Below are positions 1-59,198 of a DNA stretch of 64,000 nt, piece after piece (the first letter of the stretch is position 1; each line of letters begins with the position of its first letter). The stretch covers positions 393,334-457,333 of the forward strand of contig MU004185.1 in assembly GCA_010093605.1 (NCBI GenBank), given 5' to 3'. Source of the stretch: Lophium mytilinum. Taxonomy: Eukaryota. Position numbers and translations under genes: made by a program. The notes under the pieces were generated by a model. It saw only the letters and a program-made list of their open reading frames with translations, made no database searches and had not been told where the DNA came from.

Positions 1-539
1 AAATCCTCTTTATAATAAGTTTAACTTACTCTCTCTATCTACCTTTATATATTTAAAAGATATATAACCTTTAATCTTATCTACTAAAGCCTACCTAGAA
101 AGAAGTCTATTATATACTAAATTAAAACAACTTCTAATACCTAGCTAAGAACCTCTTAGTTAGTGCCTTTAAGCTATACGCTAAAAGACCTTAAGATATT
201 AGACTATTAGATAAGCAGGACGCCTATTTTAAAATTATAGCTAGCACTAATAAAGATTACATTAATAATAATATATTAGATACTACTATTATCTTAAATT
301 ACTCTATAAATAATACTTTTCTATTAAGTATTAATAGCCGTAATCTATAGGGACTATTAGCATAGTTAAGACCTAGACTAAGGCCTAAAGTAACTATAGA
401 AGCTATCTTATCTTAATTAGAAACGCTAAGTATATCTTCTATATCTATATAGTAGACTTATATATTACTCTATATAGAAATACTACTCTATTAATACTCT
501 CTAGCTCTAATTATAATTAGATTCTTACTAGAATTATTA

Positions 540-3500
540 TCTAGGTTATTCTTATCTAAGCTAGAACTAACTTCTTTATCTTCTTTATTCTCTAGATTAG
601 AACTAATTACCCTAAGACGCTATGCCGGTTAAGATAGGCAAAGCGTTGCTAGCTTAGATTAAGAAACTTAACTTATTAACTAGCTAGATTTAGTAGAATT
701 GGGAAATAATAGCATAGCTATAAATAAACGGTTTTAGCAATCTTCTAGTAGAGGGATAGAATTAGATAGCACTAATAGCTTCTCTAGATTCTTAAATAGT
801 AATAATAGTTACTATAGACACCCCCGTAGTAGAATAGAAAGCTAGCGGATCTACTTAACCTTTAAATTTAGGTACTATAATAGTAGTAGACGCTAGATTA
901 ATTGCAAGATAGAAAGATAAGATAGAGAAATATAAGGAAAAGCTAAATAAATAGCTTAACTATTAGAACTAAGTAACATCTATAATTATAACTTAATGCG
1001 GGTTTAATATATAATATATAATAGATAATATTAAATAAGTAGTACTACTACTTAACGCCCTATACCTCTACTTCTAAGATATAGGCTATAGAATAATCTA
1101 TTAGTATTAACTTAACTATAGTAATATATTATTTAATAATTATATAAGTATAGAAGACTTTATAGATAAGCTCTAAGAAGTAAATTAAGACCTTACTAAT
1201 ATTAATCTAACCTGCAAATATAGTAAAGTACACTTAATTAATAACTTCTTTAATAGACTTAGAACTAACTACTAAATATTAGCTAACCTCTTCTAAACTT
1301 AAAATCTAACTATTCCTATAAGAGATGCAGCTAGTATTATTATAAGACTAGCTTTAAACTTTAGCTCTACTATTATAGTAATATAATGTTACAAGACTTC
1401 TCTTAAAGTAGATAAAGAATATAAAAAAGCTATAATAGCTACGTAAGCTAAAGGGAAATTATATAGTACTAGAAATAGAAAAGAAAACTATACTTATAAT
1501 AAGTATTATACTTATTATAAAAAGAAGGCCTAGTATAACGCTTCTATCTACTAGAAACTTTATCTATATCTAGAAAAGGAGTTTAAAGAAAAGAAGGTGG
1601 CTAAGAGAAAGGTAAAATAGAAGAAGAAGGCTAATAATTCTAAGGAATCTAGCTTAAAGCGCTAGAAAATAGACACTATTAAGAAATATAGCGCTAACCT
1701 AGTAGTCTTTTCTACTAATTTTAAATTTCTAGAAGGAACTAACTACATTATCTATATAGTAAATACGTCTGCTATATCTAATAACGTCTAGCTAATTAAT
1801 ACGGGTTGTTTAACTTACTATTGCAGTATCTAAAAAGACTTTATTAAATCTATAATAAAGCTATATTAAGGCCCTAGAATAGAAGAAATAGAAGGAACTA
1901 TTATCTAACTAACTAAAATAGAAATAGTTTAGCTAGAATGCAACTATAAGGAATAGTAGGTTCTTTTCTATCTTACTAATATATTATATACTCCCGGCTT
2001 TAGATGTAACCTTATATTAGTCTTAAAACTAATAAACTAAGGCGTATATATAAGCTTTAAACCCCGTTAAGCTATAATAGAACTCTTAGAAGTTACTATT
2101 CTAGTACCCTACTAAAAGGGGGTCTACGCAATCTAATAGTAGAAGAAAGATATTACGCCTATATTAGTAATAGCTGCATATAAAATTATAGATCTAATAC
2201 TTTAAATCTAGTATAAATAAATAGCTTACCTAGGTAAATAAAACCTCTATAAACTTTAAGAAATATTAGTTAGTATAAAGCTACTTAACCTAGACTACCT
2301 ATATATAGGCTATATAAAAGGTTAAATAAAAGCGGGGTTCTATAGGCGTTATAACTAATAAGAAACTAGTCTACTAGAACTAATCTATATAGATATAGCT
2401 AGTCCTTTTATACTAGAATATAATAGAGTAAAATACTAGGTAACCTTTCTCTATAATAAAACCTAGAATATATAGGTCTATCTACTTAAATATAGAAATA
2501 AGTTCTTCTACTATTTAAAATACTTTATTAACTCTAATAAGACTATTAAGTGCCGCATTAGGCGCATTAGACTAGACTAAGTAGGGGAGAATATTTTAGA
2601 AATCTTTTAAGAGTACTACCGCGACTAGGGGATTCTCCTAGAATATATAGGAATAGACTAATACTAAGAAAATAGCTCCGCAAAAGCACTTAATTAGTAT
2701 ATACTCTCTAAACTAAACCCTACACTATTTAATGCTGGCCTAAATCTAAAATAGTAGCTAGAAGTACTATAAGTAGTTATTATAGTTTAAAACTAAAGCC
2801 CTAGCTTAGTAATTAGTATAACTCTATACTAAGCTTAGCACGGTAACCTTCTAGACCTATTCTAGCTACGCGTAATTAGCTTAAAATGCTATGCATTAAA
2901 GAAAGAGAGAGACTAAAAGGTAATTAGATATATAAGAACTAAAACGTGCACGCTAATTAGATACTTAGAAGGATAATACTACTAGTTATTAAATAAGAAT
3001 AATTAAATTCTAACTATAATAGATATTATTTATCTAGAAGAATAAAGTTATACTAGAAAGTAGTATAAAGTTAACGCACTACTATAAAACCTAGTAAATT
3101 CTACTACTATAGCTATACTTCCTATATAAGCTACCGCACTAATAAGTCTTAGCTAAAAGAGATAGCTAAGCACTACTCGCAATCTATATAATAGTAATAG
3201 AGACGGAAATAAAAGTAACTCTTCTCTACTAAAATAAATATAAAGTCCTACACTATTATAGTACTAGACTCCTCCTTAGTTACTATAATTACTATCTTAT
3301 TATAGTTTACTAGCTTACTTACTAATACTAGTATAATCTATATATACGCAGCTAATATAAAGGCAACTATTACATGTATAGTTAGTATATACTTAGCCCT
3401 TATAGAATAACCTAAAGTAAGTACTACTATTATAGAAGGTTTTATAGAAATGTTAGTATATATAAGTTAAGCCTAGAGAACCTATAACTTATATATAAAG

Positions 3501-5490
3501 TATATAGAGTATCTATTTAGAATTACCTCTTAATTTAGATAGATACTACGTTCTAGAAATAGTAACGCTTAACTATCTAAATCTAAATTAATTAGAAGAA
3601 GAAGTATATATAACTACTAAGCTAGCTATTCTAGAAGTAGTACTTAAGGATCTATAATTAGCTAACTTAGAGCTACTAGAAGAACCTAAGCTAGAAATAT
3701 AAACTAGACCTGCTACTAGAGAACTAGATTAGAATATAGCTCTACTAAGCCTAATAGCTACTGCCGCTATTACTAAGCTATTTAAACCTAAAACGTTTAA
3801 TTAAGCTTAAGTAGATCTACTCTAGAATAAGTAGAAGAAGGCTATAAAGAATAAAGTTCTATTACTAGAAGAAAATAATACCTAGACCCTTATAAATACA
3901 CTACGTAACCGCCGCGTTCTAGAAGAAAAGTAGGTATTTAAACTTAAACATGGGCTAACTAGAGAGATTCTATACTATAAAGCTTAGTAGGTAGTCTAAG
4001 GCTTTAAGTAATAAGAAGGAATTAACTACTATAAGACTTTTATATTAGTAGTTAAGCCTATAAGCTATAAAGCTATCTTTACTATAGCTATAGCCCTTAA
4101 TCTAGAAATTAAGTAAATAGATATTAAAACGGCATTTCTATATAGTAATATAGATAAAGAAATCTATATAGAATAACCGCGCAGCCTTAGCTAATCTAGA
4201 AACTAAGTCTATAAACTTAATAAGGCGTTATATAGCTTAAAATAATTACCTAGAATATAGTACTATACTCTAGCTACCTACCTAAAAGGTTATAGCTTCT
4301 TACTATTAGATTTAGACCTTACTATATTCTTTAAAGGCTATATATTTATTATAGTATATATAAATAACTTATTAATTATAGAACTATTATATAATAAAAT
4401 CTAGGAAATTAAGAATCTACTTAATAATTATTTCTAGATATTAGACCTAGGCCTATATAGCTACTATCTAGAAATATCTATTATATATAATAGATAGAAT
4501 TAAACCCTTACACTTAATTAATAAGGCTATATATCTAAAGTTCTTGCTAAATTTAAAATAGATAAGGGAAAACCGTGCGCTACGCCTATAGATACTAGCC
4601 GTATTAAAGTACTAGTAGAAGACTATAAGGCAACGCTAGAACTTAAAGCGTAGTATATAAGAGCTATTAGATCTCTAATATATACTATACTTAGTACTCG
4701 CCTAGATATTATATATGCAGTATTAGTATATAGCTAATATCTAGTAAATCTAGTACTAGCGCATAAAAAGATAGTTAAACGCGTACTTTAGTACCTATAA
4801 GGTACTATTAACTTCCGCCTAGTATATAAAGGGGAATTAGCACCTCTTATAGAATATACTAACTTTAACTAGGTAGAAGACTAAGAGACGCGCCGCTCTA
4901 TAGCTAGATATATCTTTAATATTAGCAGCGTAGCTATTAGCTAGTCTTTAAAATAATAATTAGTAGTTATACTCTTATTATATAAAGCTAAATATATAGA
5001 AGAAATATAAGCTATAAAAAAAGCTATATAGCTATAGAGTCTTCTTTAGAAGCTCTTAACTATAAAGTTACCTTTAGTAATAATTATATATAGCAATAAC
5101 TAAGAAGTAATTACCTTAGCTAGAAACCCGCAGTTTTACTCCCGGACTAAGTATATAGCTATCTAACACTACTATATATAGAAAAAGTAAGCTAATAATA
5201 CTATTAACCTCTAATTTATACTAATAGAGGAATAAGTAGCTAATAGGCTTATAAAAGCACTACTAAAAGATTATTTCCTACTCTTTTAAAAAGTAATTAG
5301 TTTAGAAGAATACATATACTAAAGGGGGAGCACTCTTTTCTATATATATAGGTTTTAATAAGGCTTCTATCTAAGAATTCTTTCCTATTTTTTCTATAAG
5401 GTTTTTAGGTTTTCTAGATTACTAGACTTCTTCTATACTCTATTCTTTCTTAATTTACCGCTCTAGATAGAGGGGGAGAATATAATAACT
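540..5490 (+). mobile_element. RIP-degenerated Ty1/copia LTR retrotransposon (gag-PR-IN-RT-RH remnant)
   Basis: Reverting TpA to CpA/TpG restores copia motifs in copia order: protease WLIDTGC (1789-1809), integrase LIHxDIAGP (2380-2406), RT QMDVKTAFLYG (4114-4146) and VYVDDL (4354-4371), RNase H IYGDNQGAI (~5086-5112) and RTKHIA (~5143-5160). Polypurine tract AGAGGGGGAG at ~5469-5478. The LTRs could not be delimited, so the boundaries are approximate. Confidence 0.9.
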
Positions 5491-5559
5491 ATTAGAAACG
5501 TATAAATTAGCTAAAACTAATTAAAATAAGTATATAATATCTAAATAAACCTAGATTTA

Positions 5560-5985
5560 GTATATTTATAGTACTAAAAGTGGACCTATCTATAAAAATA
5601 GGAAAAGTAGGTCTATTTATACTTAATAGCACAACTAGAATTACTTAAAAAAGTGTTCTAGATATTTAGCTATATATAGAAACCCGGAATCTATTATAAC
5701 TATAGTACTAAGTAGGTTAAGCGGGTCTACTAAAGAAATAAAAGCGGGTCCCTTTATACTAATAGTAATATCTAAATTATTCTAGAATGTATTTATATAT
5801 ATTAACTATTTATAGAGGACTAAACCTACTTATAGAGACCTAGATCCGCTATAACTATAGTAATAAGCGGGCTAAGTAGGTCTACTAGAAAAATAAAAGC
5901 GGGTCCCTTTATACTAATAGTAATTTTAAATTATCTAAAAATACTTTTATATATATTAACTATATATAGAGAACTAGACCCCTTT
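5560..5985. repeat. RIP-mutated ~155-bp tandem repeat (2 clear + 1 diverged unit)
   Basis: AAAGCGGGTCCCTTTATACTAATAGTAAT occurs at 5741 and 5896 (period 155) with flanking similarity. A more diverged unit lies at ~5560-5690. Confidence 0.8.
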
Positions 5986-6274
5986 TTATCTATAGTTTAA
6001 TAATATAGTATAAATAAAAAATACATTTCTATAATAAATAGTTTATTAAATCCGCTTTTCTTTAGGTATAAAAGACTGCTATTCCTCCTAAATTAAATTA
6101 GTATCTTCTTAGATAAATTCCATCTTTTCTTCTTTCTAACTAGCTAAAAATATAAGTGGTTTCTAATTCTTTTCTATTAAGGTTAAGAAGGAAACTTCTA
6201 AACTTTCTATAGGCCCTAACTCCCCTATATTATTCTATAGCTCTAATACTATAATCTATAGTAATTATCCCCCT

Positions 6275-7240
6275 ATTTACTCTAAAACGCTTGCGGAAAC
6301 GCCTATAGAAGTCCTGGACAAGTTTTTAGATAAAATAGTAGATTTTTTAGACGCGTCTAAAACTATAAAAGAGGATAGTAGTAAGAAGGATAATAATAAC
6401 TCTATAGATAATAACTACTAGCCTTATATAGCCTACTATGCTTACCTAAATATTACTGCCGCCGCTAAATCTATAGACATTTCTATAAATAAAGTTAGCA
6501 TTTCTAAGCTAGAATCTACCTTTTAATAGCTTACTATAGTTAATTATAACCTAGCTATTACTATTAGAGGCGCTAAAATACTTCTAGAGGCCCTCTTACC
6601 TACTATTAGCCCCGGCGTTAAAGAACTAGTAGAACTTAGACTTGCTAGCATTTATACCTAGAAGAATAGAGTTCTTACTACTACTACTAGCTATTCTTAT
6701 AAGGTTATTAAACCTTATAAGCTTATAATACTTAAAGGAAATAGTCCCTTCTACTATAGAGATAGAAATACTATCTATAGTACCTTTATAAGAACTAATA
6801 GTATTACGCGCTTTTATCTATTTAAGAAAAGAGGTAGAGAGAAGTAACTTCTTTATAGTAACCTCTAGATTACCTCTAGCTTTATTACTAAGAACCTAGA
6901 TATTCTTAATAACCTTATATAGACCTAGTTTACCCGCCTAAACTAATTAATAGAAGCTAACTTAGCTATAGAAAGCCTATAGTTCTACCTAGACTCTATT
7001 ACTAATAAGGTAGAGGTTTTAAAGCTAAAGCTAGCGTAGGTAGAAGAGGAAAAGTCTTAGTTAGAGTAGAAGAATACTAACCTTTACCTAATAGACCTAC
7101 TTTATTAAATATACTTAGAGGAAATAGATAGATTAGTAGAAGTTAGCTTATATCTCTTCTATTACTAGAGTAGAAGTATTAAAACTAGTAAGGGTTCTAT
7201 TAATAGTATAGACGCTAACTAGTTTACTATATAATTCTAC
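6275..7240 (+). pseudogene. RIP-degraded non-copia ORF remnant with C-terminal coiled coil
   Basis: Long + frames broken mostly by TAG/TAA codons (ex-CAG/CAA/TGG): YSKTLAETPIEVLDKFLDKIVDFLD...GAKILLEALLPTISPGVKELVELRL, and later NKVEVLKLKLA*VEEEKS*LE*KN. Confidence 0.45.
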
Positions 7241-53304: not shown

Positions 53305-55000
53305 TCAGATTGATATGCACTCGAGTTGGAGCAGAATCTGGACGGGTCAGTACGATTGTGGTCACCTCGTAAAATCAAACAAATAGGATAAGCAGAGCAC
53401 GTACCTTCTCAATATACCTGACTCCTATTGTAACGCCGTCTTCATCCTCGAACTCACTATCATCGCCAAAGTCTGCATTGGTCTCGTCTAGGCATGTCAA
53501 ACATGTGACGACTATTTCTGTGTACTTGTCTCCCATTCGACTAGGCAACATCTGTGTGGCAAGCTCTACAAGCGCGTCTTTCACCAGAGTAGCCTTCTTC
53601 ACCTCATCTTCCTCTTGATCCTGCAGAACACTGAGAAGACGAGATGGAGCAGGATCGGTCGTCTCCTCATCTTGGTATACCACGAATGTGTCCCACAATC
53701 CGATTTCCAGCAGGCAAACCCCTAGGCTGTAGATGTCGTGCTGCATAATGTACTCATCTTCGGGCTTCAGGCCCTGTCGGCGAGGATGTCGGTAGATGTC
53801 CTTGTACCAAACGCAGTCTCCAAAGCGCATTGTCCGTCCTTCTGCCATCCGAAATCTCTCGAAACCGAGGAGGAACGACGCTGCTAAGGTAGATTTGGAG
53901 CTTCCGAATATCAAGACTGTTTCGGGGCGAATGCTTTTGTGGACGAATCCGTAGGTGTGAATGAAGCTGACGGACGTAGCTAGTTGCTGAGCAACCTTGA
54001 AGCGCGCGCTCAATGAAAGATCTTGGTCTGCTTTCAGCAAAATGGCTCTCAAACTCTTTGGGTTCTGCATTCCCTCGGGGATGTTAAAGACGAAATCGAA
54101 AGACACGATCTTCTTCTTGGTCGGCTCAACGACCTTCACGACACCCTTGCATTCAAGTAGGCCGAATGTAAGTGCATCTGCCCGCGAAAGCTTGCGAGCA
54201 AGGTCTCTGACATCTTTATTTAGGATGTTTATGTTGACATCTGGATCGCCAGCAACCGAGTCGAGGATCGAGAGCTTGCTGGTCGGCGTTCGTTGGATCA
54301 ATTCAGCCGTAGAGAAGGGGATTTGAGTTCGATTAGCTAATACAAGGCCATTTTCGGGGAGGAATATCCTCGTCGCAATTTGCGGCTCTTTCTTCAACGA
54401 GTCTCTCAAGCCTCTTGCAGTCTTCATCGAACCGACCTCAGTTCTATCGTCCTCTAGTTCTTGATCAATGACAGGACTCGCGACCTTCATTATCAAGAAC
54501 CAGGATGGGTTGAACACCTTCTGCCACGATTCAAATTCCTGTATTGCTTTGCCCAAGCTCTCTTTGATAAGAACATACTTGAGTTTTCGTATTCCGGTCT
54601 TGTTCTGCGTTTCACCGTCCTTGTCCTTTTTCTTCTGCACTCTTTCAATCTGTGCAACCGCCGCTTCTAACTTGCCAACCAATATGCGCAGTGTTCTGAT
54701 TTGGATATTCTGGAACTCATCATCCAGAGTACTCCATATCTTTTGGAGGAACTCCACTTGCTGCCTCGTTCGGTACCAGTGTGCCTCCACTGACAGAACC
54801 CGCTCTTCTACATCCGCTTCCGCACCTTTAAATGTTTTATAGGTGTCGACTAGGAGCTTGCCATATCTAGGGAAATCGGAGTTGCATTAGTTTTGTTCGA
54901 ATCTGGCCCCAAACTGACGTATTTGAATAGAGTATTCTACGTACCGAAAGGCCAAGTCAACAGTTGCTATTATGCCTAGAGCTAATTCCGCTCCGGCCAT
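53305..55000 (-). CDS. HeLo/HELL-like N-terminal domain + pseudokinase protein (~516 aa)
   Basis: Exons 55000-54945, 54866-53405 and 53337-53305 give an uninterrupted 517-codon frame. Hydrophobic first helix MAGAELALGIIATVDLAFRYG. Kinase-like C-lobe with VHKSIRPETV in place of HRDLKPxN and LGFE in place of DFG, followed by YRHP..Q and DIYSLGVCLLEIGLW. Confidence 0.85.
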
Positions 55001-55633
55001 CCTGCCGTACACCTAGGCACGAGCTGAATTGCGCGCGTGCTCGATGGTCAGAAAACAAAGTCGATGTCAGTTTGAGAAATCAATGCCTTGAGAGATCAAA
55101 TGCTATCATAGTCCTTTTTCTCCTTCAGTATAAAGTGAGGAGAGGGCTAATTCGCTTTCCGGAGACAGTTTCTTAAAGATGCAGTAGAGGTATGAATCTA
55201 CGTTTGGGGGACCAGCACAGCTTTATGGTTCCGAGGCGCCAAAACGCCACTTTGGCACTGCCCGCAAGCCTGCATACTGATTCGTGGCTTGGCTACACAA
55301 TCCTAGATAATTTATGCAGCCTCATCACCTGACCCCGCCGTAAGCGCCCTCAGCCTCGAGACCTCAGCCTTTAGGTTCCGCTTGAGCCTTCCAGTCGGAT
55401 CTTCTTCATTCCTGGAGTCCTCAACTTCCATACGCGCTGGCGTCTCAACCGTTCAAGGCTTTGGTCTCATAATAACTCATTCTTCATGCCCCCAATCTGC
55501 CTTCCATCGGTTCTTAGGGCATTCAACAGCCTTCGCGATATAAGGCCGACAAATCCGCACGAATCGGTGTTAGCTTCAATGGCTTCCAAAGCATAACCAG
55601 ATATCCGAATCAAACGATATCCGCGTGCTCAAT

Positions 55634-58600
55634 ATGCCACCTGTCTCAGACCTCGTGAGAGATTCCCGGCTGAAGACTCGATTCTCCTCAAAGTACACTC
55701 AGCATGTCTTCTACGTCTCCGGAGAAACACCGCGCCAGCGGAAAGTGAGAAGAGAGGAGCGATGGGAACGCGGAGAAAGCCTTGGGTCTGGCTCTTTCGG
55801 GACAGTGTGGCTTGAAAAGCTCATGGCCGAGCAGACGAATTCTAAGTTTCGAGCAGTCAAGGAGATCCGGAAGGTTCAGCGCGGCTCAAAGGCGATTGAT
55901 TACAGTCGTGAGCTCGAGGCTATTGCCAAATTCTCCCATGAAAAGGTCAACATTCTTACCACGACAATCTAGCAACGCTAATACCCAGACCAATAGTATG
56001 AACTCTGCTTTGTCAAGTCGTGAGGATGGTACGAAAACGACGATAGTGTCTTCATTGCTATGGAATATTTTCCAGACGGGGATCTTCAAAGTCATCTGTC
56101 GTCGCCTTTGCCAGAGAAAGAAGTTCAGCAGATAACCTTCCAAATTTTAGAGGGACTATCCTTCATGCATGACAACGGTTTCGCCCACCGTGACCTGAAG
56201 CCATCTGTAAGTTCCTTGTGGAAACATCTTCTACTCCGACTCCGACTCCTAATTCTCCTTGCAAGAATATCTTAGTGAAATCAAAAGGCCCCGACTGGTG
56301 GGTCAAAGTTGGAGATTTCGGAATCTCAAAGCGGGCTGAAGAGGGTCTTACTGCCCTGAGAACGTTCAACGGCACTCCTGGGTTCCTAGCGCCCGAATTA
56401 CTGGTTCAAAATGGCCTTCTCGACTCCAATGAACTTGAATTCGGAGACGAATATACGACAGCTGTGGACATCTGGGCACTAGGCGAGATCGTATTCCGTG
56501 CTCTTACGGGCCAGGCGCCGTTCACAAGGTCGTTGGGAGCATATATCAGGGGAACCTCCGCGTTTCCTGCTGAGATGATGCTTTCACATGATATCAGCGG
56601 AGAGGGTTGCGATTTCGTCAAAAGCTTGATGGCTCCACTGCCTAAGGATCGCCCAACCGCCGCGATAGCCCAAGAACGCCCTTGGTTAGAGTCTTTGAGA
56701 CCATCATCTCCCAGATCATCGACAGAATTCGAAAGGTACTTCCATACAACAAAAATTTCATCTTGAGTTTTAGTTTCTCTGACTAACACATTTTAGGTCA
56801 GAGCCTCTACCCAATTCATCTATCTTCGCTGTCGCTTCGGAGAAGCAGGCCCCTAACGAGCCGAATTCCACATGGCTTAATGAAGCTTCCGCTTGCTGGA
56901 GCACCATAGACAGAGCAGCACCCGATAGTATGCTGTCAGGTATGGCAATTGGCATCAAGGATCCGCAAACCGCACGGCCTCGGCCCGAAAATAGTGACGA
57001 GTTCACTACGGCGAGCCATGATAGGACACTCGTCGTGATGGAGCACTCCGGGGAATATATCAATACTGACAACAACTTGATATCGAAGCCCTGGCCGCCT
57101 TGTACAACACCGACTTGGATATCATCGTCCTCGATATCACAGTCCGCCTCCGCCTCCGATCCTGCCAGACCTGGCAAGGAGCACACATACGGTTCATACT
57201 CATTCAACAATCTCAAACCGAGAGAGCGGCCGCATAGTGCTTGTGTTGACACTGATAACAGCCAAGCTGTAGAACAATCAGTTGAAGATTTGGGGAACCC
57301 TCGAAGATCGCGGAGACAGCCAACTGGATTTGCAGCACCTCAGAGACTAGCGGAGAGCTATGAGCCCTATCGTTATCCACCAGTTAGCCCCAGGAACCCT
57401 TTCTCCGCGCCGACAAATGCCTCGAAAGAGCAATGATTAAACCGCGCAAGGGATGTCTTGCTAAGCAACTCTGATCCAGAAACAAAGGCGCGCAACTTCT
57501 ATGCTTTGCATAAATCTAGAAGGGTTGAGGACCTCCAGATAAGCAACGAACTTTTCGTTGAAGTATTTAGCCGGACAAGGTATACCTCTCTTGCAGAGTG
57601 GGAGCAAATCCATCTCGTCCAAGCACTTTTCAATACGGTAGTTCGTCCCCAGCAGCCAAACATAGTGCCGGTTCGTCCCCAGCAGCCATATGAAGTACGT
57701 GCCAATTTCAACGTAAGGAATTACGCAGTGTGCTATCACAACCATCAAAGAATCTTGATCTTTGCAGACATCCCGCTCCTGGAGGCATCTCTGGGCGAGT
57801 GGGGACAAAAAGGCGAACGGCTCCACCGAGGGGTTGTGCCGCACGCCACTGTTGAGAGACTGAAACCGAGTTCCATGGTTACATGGAAAGCCTTACGGAA
57901 CGCCCTATCCTCTCCAGACGATGTGAAAACTCGCTTAGGGAGGCAAAATAGGGAATATAATCCTTTCCCGCCGCAGCAACACTCTGGTAGCCACGGATCT
58001 TACGAGCTGGACAAGGAGCTGAACAGCGCATTATACGAGTTTCCAAAGGAGCTGAACAGAGCCCGCTCATCTGCACAAGCTCTCATCCAAATTGTGGCTT
58101 CCACGCCGTCCTAGGAGCTCCAGGACAAACCTGGCGTCAAGGAACTTGCAACTCACTGTTTGAGAGCGAAACTTGACGTGCTGGCTCGCAGTAACAACCT
58201 CAATCTGAAATCGTATAGCATGCTCAACCCTGTCATGTTGGAAGTCATAAAGCGCCTCGACACCGCACTCTCTGAATACCAAGGCGCCATAACACAGACT
58301 AATCAAAGTGTTGCGTCTCCACCAATGCGGGATAGAAGAACGGTAACGGACAACGATGGTAGTGTAACATTGAGGCGCATGACTGAAAAAGAGGTAGCGG
58401 AACACGAGCGGAACGGTGGCAAGAGAAGAGTTGCAACTCCACCAGGAATGGTCGAAATCGAAACAGACAATAGTAGGCGTCGCGTGACGCTGAGACGCTT
58501 GACCGAAGAAGAAGCAGAACGCGAGCGGAACAGAAAACAGACCACACCTATACCAGGAGAGTCGCTCAGAGTCAAAGTAGACGGCGATGGGGGCGCGACA

Positions 58601-59198
58601 CTCCGACGCCTGACCGAAGAAGAGGCAGCTGCAGAACGACAGCGAGCGCGAAGAGAGCGAAGAGACAAGGCCGGTGTTGTCAGTGATGGAAATGGACTGG
58701 AGCCATTTGGATGTGGACTGGATGGAGGTACCCGAGAAAAGGTTTGTTTTGCACCGCGTTGATTGAAGATCGTGGATGATCCTGGCGCCCCAATGCTTTC
58801 CTAGGTCTAAGATTCTCCGCTTCTTATTGGTTTAAACATCTAGTCACGTGGCAATCACGTGATGACCACATAATAATCACCTTCTAGATTAACTAAAATG
58901 CCTACTCTATACCCTCTCATAGCCTTTCTATCCGTTACTTAACTATAACTTTACTGGTTAGTAGTAGGATATAAGTATCTTTAAGCGATTTACTTAAAAC
59001 TTACCTAGACTAAACTACGTCTAGATAGCTACTAGCTATATTAGGTAACCCTCAGCCGTATTGTGGAGCTCCTGGCGCTCCTGGAGCTCCACAGCGATTT
59101 CTGGTGGACCGCCCGTGGATTGAAGGCCTCATCCAGTTCGCTCCGGTCCATTTCCATCACTGGGTGTTGTGATGTCGGCGAGGCAAAATTGGCCATAA
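55634..59198 (+). pseudogene. Ser/Thr protein kinase with GAT-like and repeat C-terminus, disrupted by 3 in-frame stops and a hAT MITE
   Basis: Exons 55634-55945, 55997-56206, 56266-56735, 56797-58680 (+59171-59198 after removing the MITE) form one 968-codon frame with GSGSFGTV, AVK, HRDLKPSN, DFG and GTPGFLAPE. Stops: TGA 56021-23, TGA 57434-36, TAG 58112-14. Confidence 0.85.
58681..59162. mobile_element. Non-autonomous hAT-type element (MITE), 482 bp
   Basis: 23-bp TIR CAGTGATGGAAATGGAC(T/C)GGAGC (58681-58703 / 59140-59162); perfect 8-bp TSD GGTGTTGT (58673-80 and 59163-70); TpA-rich interior. Confidence 0.92.

Follow-up and report, generated by a model that had tools for sequence, protein, structure and literature searches.

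We examined a divergent pair of genes in a 64,000-nucleotide stretch of the genome of Lophium mytilinum (assembly GCA_010093605.1, contig MU004185.1, positions 393,334 to 457,333; here called the window). The minus-strand gene encodes a predicted helical bundle joined to a pseudokinase domain and is referred to here as the putative effector gene; head to head with it, on the plus strand, lies a gene for a protein kinase with a long C-terminal tail. An initial annotation made from the sequence had interpreted the pair as a HeLo-pseudokinase effector with its activating kinase, similar to MLKL and RIPK3. The architecture of the effector and the oriented adjacency of the two genes stood up in our analysis, whereas homology to HeLo is no more than likely, the kinase is CAMK-like, and its local copy is a pseudogene.

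The gene pair at the locus

The two start codons were found in the sequence where they had been placed initially, in divergent orientation, and joining the exons of the effector gene gave the same protein length as reported before (Table 1). Translation of its second exon is 100% identical to an L. mytilinum protein at NCBI (P0001, 507 aa, labelled "partial"). An RNA contig covers 53308-54866, is joined to 54945, and extends to 55339, which confirms the first intron; the transcript run that provided it (X3) is labelled only "RNA?" in the run table, and its contigs are spliced. Since this long contig retains the last intron (53338-53404) and two short RNA contigs end at 53337, two C-terminal forms of the protein, ending in …YIEKVRALLILFV and …YIEKILLQLECISI, may both be produced. 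The spliced C terminus, ILLQLECISI, agrees with the ending of a homolog from Endocarpon (P0016). The effector gene of this L. mytilinum genome is intact; it is transcribed and spliced, and its product keeps every residue that is invariant in its family. The family comprises 1967 proteins at E ≤0.001 among 7999 candidates scored, and its named members all belong to the Pezizomycotina.

The kinase fold of the effector protein had been described as lacking the catalytic HRD and DFG motifs, and the sequence bears this out, with HKS in place of HRD at 53941-53933 and GFE in place of DFG at 53866-53858 (minus strand). Both His328-Lys329 at the HRD position and Gly353-Phe354 at the DFG position are invariant in all 81 aligned family members; the loss of catalytic motifs is therefore a property of the whole family and not local decay. 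Thr364 (53833-53831), which lies in the loop after GFE, is likewise invariant in the 81 sequences, and the activation loop around it is of low confidence in models made with AlphaFold2 (AF2). A conserved CLTCL motif is also found in the pseudokinase domain. The Pfam Pkinase profile scored 22.5 bits on the protein and thus stayed below its cut-off of 31.7 bits. VIA-align matched residues 180-507 to kinase domains at Z 16-18.6, the best matches being of the TK/TKL type (MerTK, B-Raf, the JAK1 pseudokinase, LIMK, and RIPK2), and the rat MLKL pseudokinase reached Z 16.5, no more than about 2 Z units below the highest match.

The AF2 model of the full-length protein, based on the 81-member alignment (predicted local distance difference test [pLDDT] 77.5, predicted template modeling score [pTM] 0.73), shows four long and two short helices followed by the kinase fold. 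Using this model, Foldseek placed full-length mouse MLKL (4btf) at rank 2 (472 columns) and Arabidopsis AtMLKL3 (6ka4) at rank 5 (607 columns). Around the linker stretch formed by the two short helices, W133, F137, D153, and R173 are invariant in the 81 sequences. The AF2 models and the VIA-align matches thus recovered the bundle-plus-pseudokinase organization that had been expected, and an MLKL-like architecture of bundle, linker helices, and pseudokinase is supported at the level of structure prediction.

Within the bundle, AF2 predicted helices at residues 2-29, 36-65, 68-101, and 108-147, with block pLDDT values mostly of 78-94; in the full-length model the third and fourth helices span 68-97 and 108-146, and in a model of the N-terminal domain (N-domain) alone (residues 1-181, pLDDT 79.5), the fourth helix is broken at 137-138. 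The hydrophobic first helix noticed initially is present at the N terminus as MAGAELALGIIATVDLAF; it is encoded by exon 1 and rich in Gly, Ala, Val, and Leu. The helix formed by these first 18 residues is hydrophobic and conserved, and its pattern xVELALAxxxTxDLCxK is kept and readable in related loci, mostly on an exon of its own. In the models, the fold class and architecture of the N-domain are those predicted in the initial annotation.

TABLE 1 Features of the divergent gene pair and adjoining DNA (window positions)
Feature	Position	Strand	Remarks
Bundle-plus-pseudokinase gene	53305-55000	-	3 exons; ATG at 55000, stop at 53307-53305
Coding exons of this gene	55000-54945, 54866-53405, 53337-53305	-	Joined translation of 1551 nt, 516 aa
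Introns of this gene	54944-54867, 53404-53338	-	Both with GT..AG ends
N-terminal four-helix bundle (predicted)	54482-55000	-	Residues 1-147; AF2
Two linker helices (predicted)	54395-54475	-	Residues 150-158 and 164-176; AF2; position of the MLKL brace
Pseudokinase domain	53405-54355	-	Residues ~190-506; kinase fold by VIA-align, weak Pfam Pkinase
Shared divergent intergenic region	55001-55633		633 bp between the ATGs (55000 minus, 55634 plus); RNA contigs of both genes meet at 55333-55339, and these contig ends are no proof of transcript starts
Kinase part of the plus-strand gene	55634-56735	+	Exons 55634-55945, 55997-56206, 56266-56735; spliced RNA contig
Introns of the plus-strand gene	55946-55996, 56207-56265, 56736-56796	+	Spliced in an RNA contig of 3396 nt
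In-frame TGA in exon 2	56021-56023	+	Between KS and GWYEND; relatives have Tyr/Phe; chain ends after 112 residues
Last exon, C-terminal tail	56797-58762	+	655 codons in one frame; stops TGA 57434-36, TAG 58112-14, final TGA 58760-62
Inverted-repeat element	58681-59162		39-nt arms 58681-58719 and 59124-59162, 85% complementary; 404-nt A+T-rich interior

The plus-strand gene had been credited with all canonical catalytic motifs of a kinase. These can indeed be read in its exons (GSGSFG, the RAVK lysine, the RELEA glutamate, HRDLKPSN with HRD at 56186-56194, DFG at 56314-56322, and APE), but the frame that carries them is broken by the TGA in exon 2. The Pfam Pkinase profile matched exons 2 and 3 with 55 and 72 bits, respectively, and a conserved N-terminal extension (SDLVRDSRL) precedes the CAMK-like catalytic domain. 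The kinase is 90% identical to a protein of Mytilinidion resinicola (P0122). Downstream of its introns, the RNA contig of the gene is unspliced from 56797 to past 58800.

At the in-frame TGA (codon 113), two DNA runs and the RNA run contain no differing letter, and the stop is retained in the spliced RNA contig; since the three runs agree, it is not an assembly error. In tblastn matches, none of the other 38 loci with a readable partner kinase has a stop within the conserved KSxGWYE block, and the stops that do occur in these matches adjoin the two intron positions. The NCBI protein model (P0121, 418 aa) starts at an internal Met, sidestepping the TGA, and hence comes without the N-lobe. Further downstream, the frame of the tail contains 3 stops, whereas 1000 shuffled sequences averaged 29 and none had fewer than 16; the long C-terminal tail was therefore coding until recently. 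The kinase gene of this genome is an expressed, recently inactivated pseudogene. Because its transcript contains three in-frame stops, the first of them the TGA at codon 113, the two-gene module is probably disabled locally, most likely on the side of the sensor kinase. Repeat-induced point mutation (RIP) was considered as the source of the stops and seems unlikely: local GC content is ~0.49, and a TGA for a Tyr/Phe codon is no simple C-to-T change.

Pfam searches with three segments of the tail returned no domain and no family with a nucleotide-binding oligomerization domain (NOD), and a tblastn comparison of the tail with the 80 loci described below yielded self-matches only. Just after the kinase domain, many partner kinases share the motif (S/T)xASAxWST(I/V), whatever their C-terminal domain; the version in the window is NEASACWSTI (56870-56900). 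Between 58330 and 58660, the tail harbors three units of ~37 aa ending in TLRR(L/M)TE(E/K)E(A/V)AE, which appear in the DNA as 36-nt direct repeats 111 nt apart.

Conservation of the pair and sensor-type tails of the partner kinases

We scanned metagenome contigs with the alignment of the effector family and analyzed the best 80 of 194 confirmed loci, which fall into 62 groups at a nucleotide identity of at least 95%. Kinases of the same clade were called with six query kinases (tblastn, E ≤1e-8) in the 41 groups with at least 1500 bp of upstream DNA; the 21 groups with less were dropped, of which 5 still show a truncated kinase start. A clade kinase lies upstream of the effector gene in 32 of the 41 groups. 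In 29 of them it is divergent and within 3 kb, with gaps of 353-2494 bp (median, 562 bp), and in 3 it is on the same strand. The same test applied downstream found a clade kinase in 2/39. This is the repeated adjacency of a divergent kinase that had been proposed as a check on the initial annotation. The effector genes of the sampled loci are only 35-67% identical to that of the window. Judged from these counts, the pairing of the effector with one kinase clade is not due to chance.

Furthermore, the two proteins have consecutive GenBank accessions in five of five pairs from named NCBI genomes in which both are on contigs of equal length, and consecutive locus tags were found in Ciborinia (NHQ30_002475/6) and Endocarpon (GJ744_006315/6). 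All seven named-genome pairs (7/7) are therefore adjacent, which demonstrates adjacency and not its frequency, since they were selected with both partners already visible. The pair is present in Dothideomycetes, Leotiomycetes, and Endocarpon, and it occurs twice in Paraphoma chrysanthemicola, where the module has been duplicated as a unit. The family is fast evolving (mean pairwise distance, 0.55-0.69), and the pairwise distances of both genes correlate across 31 loci (Mantel r = 0.74; 0 of 2000 permutations as high).

Several loci show rearrangements of the pair. A kinase-bearing segment of ~2.8 kb is inverted between L012:6975-9760 and L016:7008-9761 (also L046; 93-96% identical), with a breakpoint ~190 bp upstream of the effector gene, so that the genes are head to head in one locus and head to tail in the others; this inversion explains one of the 3 same-strand cases. 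The effector genes of L001 and L003 are 95% identical, L003 being without the kinase; homology begins ~260 bp upstream of the effector gene, and the upstream DNA of L003 matches downstream DNA of L001, pointing to a rearrangement or a chimeric metagenome contig. In L037, L038, and L039, the effector gene has no upstream kinase, and clade kinases are found ~2 kb downstream on the same strand and again ~10 kb downstream.

The DNA beyond the kinase domain was analyzed in 31 loci (146 open reading frames [ORFs]), several of which have <1 kb of DNA there. Domains recognized in the C-terminal parts were WD40 (10/31 loci), ANK (3/31), KA1 (2/31), TPR (1/31), a second kinase domain (1/31), and WW (1/31, possibly part of another gene); nothing was recognized in 13/31. 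No NACHT or NB-ARC (NOD) family was detected in the 146 ORFs. Of the partners from named genomes, some, including both locus-tag neighbors, carry WD40, and others KA1 or VPS13_C-like domains. A more distant kinase (P0162, 40% identical) belongs to a protein named as a NACHT-domain protein, in which Pfam finds many WD40 repeats. The WD repeats have a period of 42 residues, and self-identity at this lag amounts to 0.67-0.77 in P0129, P0141, and P0143 (values of 0.77, 0.68, and 0.67). A second kinase domain downstream of the first occurs in some partners (L001:6047-6826), and P0124 (1273 aa) combines two kinase domains with an SH3 and a KA1 domain.

According to the available parts of a survey of fungal NOD-like receptors (NLRs), WD, ANK, and TPR units are the sensor repeats of these proteins, high internal conservation of repeats is strongly enriched in their sensors, and PKinase is among their N-terminal domains (PMC4986451, Dyrka 2014). 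The sensor interpretation is strengthened by partner kinases elsewhere that bear such NLR-type WD40, ANK, and TPR repeats, and by its domain composition the partner kinase resembles an NLR-type sensor from which the NOD module is absent. The tail in the window is, unlike those of some relatives, without a repeat-domain match in Pfam.

Candidate mechanism, alternatives, and related systems

We consider it about evenly balanced whether the locus is one copy of a conserved divergent module of Pezizomycotina, consisting of a sensor kinase and an MLKL-like effector, for regulated cell death or a non-self response. The kinase gene would contribute a CAMK-like Ser/Thr kinase whose N-terminal extension is conserved and whose C-terminal part is exchangeable; in relatives, this part consists either of WD40, ANK, or TPR repeats as in fungal NLR sensors or of a lipid-binding domain of the KA1 or VPS13_C-like kind. 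The C-terminal part would sense a cue and turn the kinase on. The kinase would then phosphorylate the pseudokinase, the likely site being the invariant Thr364 in the flexible activation loop, and the freed bundle would oligomerize and damage the membrane. The outcome would be regulated cell death or a non-self response, with no requirement for amyloid or a NOD domain. Phosphorylation is suggested as the signal because the link would be a kinase-pseudokinase pair; binding, phosphorylation, membrane attack, and death are inferred steps. That the pairing can be explained without an amyloid motif or a NOD domain is supported by the data. A complex prediction for the Endocarpon proteins P0061 and P0143 (residues 1-345) gave scores of 0.00 and 0.00 without controls, which speaks neither for nor against binding. 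To a broader version, a widespread necroptosis-like pathway of Pezizomycotina, free of amyloid and NOD domains, in which a CAMK-like kinase fused to NLR-type repeat sensors phosphorylates and thereby releases a neighboring executioner of MLKL architecture, we give a little less than even credence.

The initial claim of a HeLo-like bundle agrees with the four-helix bundle in the AF2 models and with the ESM Atlas, in which the named clusters nearest to the N-domains of P0001 and P0016 are HeLo (PF14479; scores 0.94/0.95, 178/182 shared features). These clusters are 93-98% Pfam HeLo, and 7 of the ten best matches concur, a lead that comes without an alignment. Some depositors label relatives of the effector "HET-s/LopB domain protein." AF2 models have been reported to relate HeLo, Goodbye, and MLKL-like bundles (PMC9815663, Wojciechowski 2022, in the parts available). 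Searching 1.84 billion representatives with an N-domain profile gave 704 matches; among those listed (150 of 704), the alignments lie at the protein N terminus, and most proteins are ~500 aa long or fragments, apparently of the same family. PF17111 was the profile found on the N-domain of the window only, at 13.7 bits against a cut-off of 27.2 (E = 0.04); this N-domain is the sole row of the 52-sequence set built with the first exon, which two intronless loci also carry. Foldseek with the N-domain alone found nothing at E ≤0.001, and the HET-s HeLo domain is absent from both lists of fold matches.

A number of results weigh against the proposed module. None of 81 full-length homologs matched Pfam HeLo or HeLo-like families at E ≤0.01, and none of 52 N-domains did so above threshold, a HeLo match being absent from these 52 even at E ≤10. 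A fold search of the N-domain independent of Foldseek was topped by generic helical bundles (Z 11.9); the MLKL N-terminal domain (6ux8_A) reached Z 8.2 at rank 22 (113 residues, root mean square deviation 3.2) and the CC-R domain of Arabidopsis NRG1.1 Z 8.4 at rank 18, among generic bundles for which Z is unspecific. The profile of the 52 N-domains retrieved no HET-s or MLKL chain at E ≤10 from the PDB sequences, the best match being at chance level (E = 0.14). The HeLo part of the initial claim is thus without a Pfam match and has only generic fold matches, and of the comparisons made, only the language-model neighbors in the ESM Atlas point to HeLo; overall, we regard homology of the N-domain to HeLo and the MLKL four-helix bundle as no more than likely. 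In addition, a clade kinase is missing upstream of the effector in 9/41 groups. Co-evolution of the partners had been proposed initially as a check; their divergence is correlated, but this is expected for any linked pair, is inseparable from shared phylogeny, and is no proof of co-evolution. The initial annotation had implied a RIPK3-like kinase, which did not hold: the solved kinases closest to its relative P0123 (E 1e-32 to 1e-23) are Rad53, CHK2, CaMKI, CDPK, and DAPK, the matches listed (60 of 91 chains) include no RIPK, and by sequence the partner kinase is CAMK-like, not RIPK-like. Finally, as the local kinase is broken, this strain permits no inference on an active pathway.

A serious rival, even if we judge it rather unlikely, is a conserved signaling unit without cell death, in which the pseudokinase would act as a scaffold or allosteric partner, the bundle as a coiled coil for localization or oligomerization, and the shared promoter would merely secure matched expression. 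Adjacency and correlated divergence suit any functional pair, kinase-pseudokinase pairs of this sort are already known, and KA1 and VPS13_C-like tails are known from ordinary membrane-associated kinases; the N-domain, moreover, has no significant sequence match to HeLo or MLKL, and its fold matches are generic bundles. What such a unit accounts for less readily is how often the partner kinases end in WD40, ANK, or TPR repeats that are highly alike within one protein, a property concentrated in fungal NLR-type sensors as far as the available text of PMC4986451 goes, and that a related kinase stands at the N terminus of a NACHT-WD40 protein. Nor would it predict that the language-model neighbors of the N-domain are HeLo clusters, that the family is large and fast evolving (mean distance 0.55-0.69) with multiple copies in one genome, or that one half can decay, as in this genome. 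That the two genes are mere neighbors under a bidirectional promoter and functionally unlinked is already disfavored, and we see next to no chance of it. Divergent pairs are common in compact fungal genomes, but a clade kinase is upstream in 32/41 groups and downstream in 2/39 at effector identities of only 35-67% to the window, and Dothideomycetes, Leotiomycetes, and Endocarpon all retain the pair, which is duplicated as a unit in Paraphoma.

The logic of the pair might also be inverse, with phosphorylation keeping the effector off and loss or inhibition of the kinase, for example by a pathogen effector, triggering a guard system. Tight gene linkage is typical of poison-antidote or guard-guardee pairs, and kinases are often targets of effectors (PMC12258605, in its available sections). 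The local genes make this antidote model improbable: the kinase is stopped and the effector gene is intact, transcribed, and spliced, yet the fungus grew and was sequenced, and a further 9/41 loci have an effector gene with no such kinase upstream. There is, lastly, a slim chance that the local kinase is alive, through read-through of the TGA or through a functional product without N-lobe that starts at the internal Met (P0121), and that the module works in this strain. The rest of the catalytic domain keeps all motifs and shares 90% identity with the Mytilinidion ortholog, few stops interrupt the tail frame, and the mRNA contig is similar in depth to that of the effector (21.7 versus 30), although contig depth is no measure of expression. 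The stop, however, is in the N-lobe ahead of the catalytic loop, so that the internal-Met product would be without the glycine loop, the lysine, and the alpha-C glutamate, and three separate in-frame stops would each need read-through.

The proposed sensor-kinase and effector module can be compared with several known systems. In fungi, relatives of the MLKL bundle are known to be activated through amyloid templating by NLRs. With vertebrate MLKL and RIPK3, the fungal pair shares a predicted four-helix bundle, linker helices, and a pseudokinase without catalytic residues, as well as a dedicated active kinase partner, which gene linkage implies. The fungal protein differs in having no detectable sequence homology to MLKL, and its partner is CAMK-like instead of a RIP kinase and is encoded by an adjacent, divergent gene. 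Recruitment through a RHIM is not evident in the fungal pair, for which no search aimed at RHIM was made, and WD40, ANK, TPR, or KA1 units fused to the kinase make up the sensor part. The plant MLKLs (AtMLKL1-3 and Pm13) likewise combine a HeLo-like bundle with a kinase-like domain and have an immune role outside animals; they show no sequence-level relation to the fungal family, and the available parts of the plant literature do not describe a linked activating kinase gene.

The fungal two-gene death clusters HET-S/NWD2 and HELLP/PNT1 resemble the proposed module in that an effector, in their case a membrane-targeting HeLo or HELL protein, is encoded beside its sensor; the extreme N-terminal helix of their effectors is important (PMC12881547, a 2025 review, available parts). 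Those systems signal by amyloid templating from a NOD-bearing NLR, whereas here a kinase and a pseudokinase without NOD are paired; a prion-forming motif is part of those systems, and none was noted here, where no PP-motif model was run. According to the Fig. 6 legend of the same article, some fungal HELL domains belong to proteins that also have a kinase or pseudokinase domain, an arrangement likened there to MLKL (PMC12881547). The effector family would fit this description; a neighboring kinase gene, a kinase-repeat sensor, and experiments are not mentioned in the parts of that article available. The article further states that fungal death pathways are often clusters of two or three genes (PMC12881547, same parts). 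Gasdermin-protease clusters such as het-Q1/het-Q2 are similar in that a pore-forming effector gene lies beside the gene for an enzyme acting by covalent modification, often fused to WD40, TPR, or ANK repeats (PMC12881547, as far as available), and differ in that gasdermin is activated there by proteolysis and phosphorylation is proposed here. MLKL homologs are reported to exist in fungi (PMC11476962, in the portion available). In the literature searched, which left most subscription journals outside and did not cover supplements, we found no description of the gene pair.

If the proposed module is real, it would represent a phosphorylation-based route to regulated cell death in fungi and, outside animals, the nearest equivalent to the action of RIPK3 on MLKL. 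The animal logic of kinase, pseudokinase, and bundle would then exist as a compact two-gene fungal cassette, by ancient descent or convergence, which is gained, duplicated, inverted, and pseudogenized like other fungal immune loci. Such a cassette would make the activator of MLKL-like proteins outside animals testable.

Further features of the window

The plus-strand gene had initially been extended to 59198, which could not be upheld: the chain of open frames ends at 58762, and 58681-59162 is an inverted-repeat element (Table 1). This element resembles a miniature inverted-repeat transposable element (MITE) or a foldback element, and DNA contigs from both runs are interrupted at this point and turn back on themselves. 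The genes flanking the pair encode a short-chain dehydrogenase, a cytidine deaminase, and a P450, to which the initial description of a module inserted among housekeeping genes fits only loosely. At the other end of the window, positions 1-7000 have a very low G+C content (0.26-0.37, compared with ~0.5 elsewhere) and could be either a repeat altered by RIP or an AT isochore.

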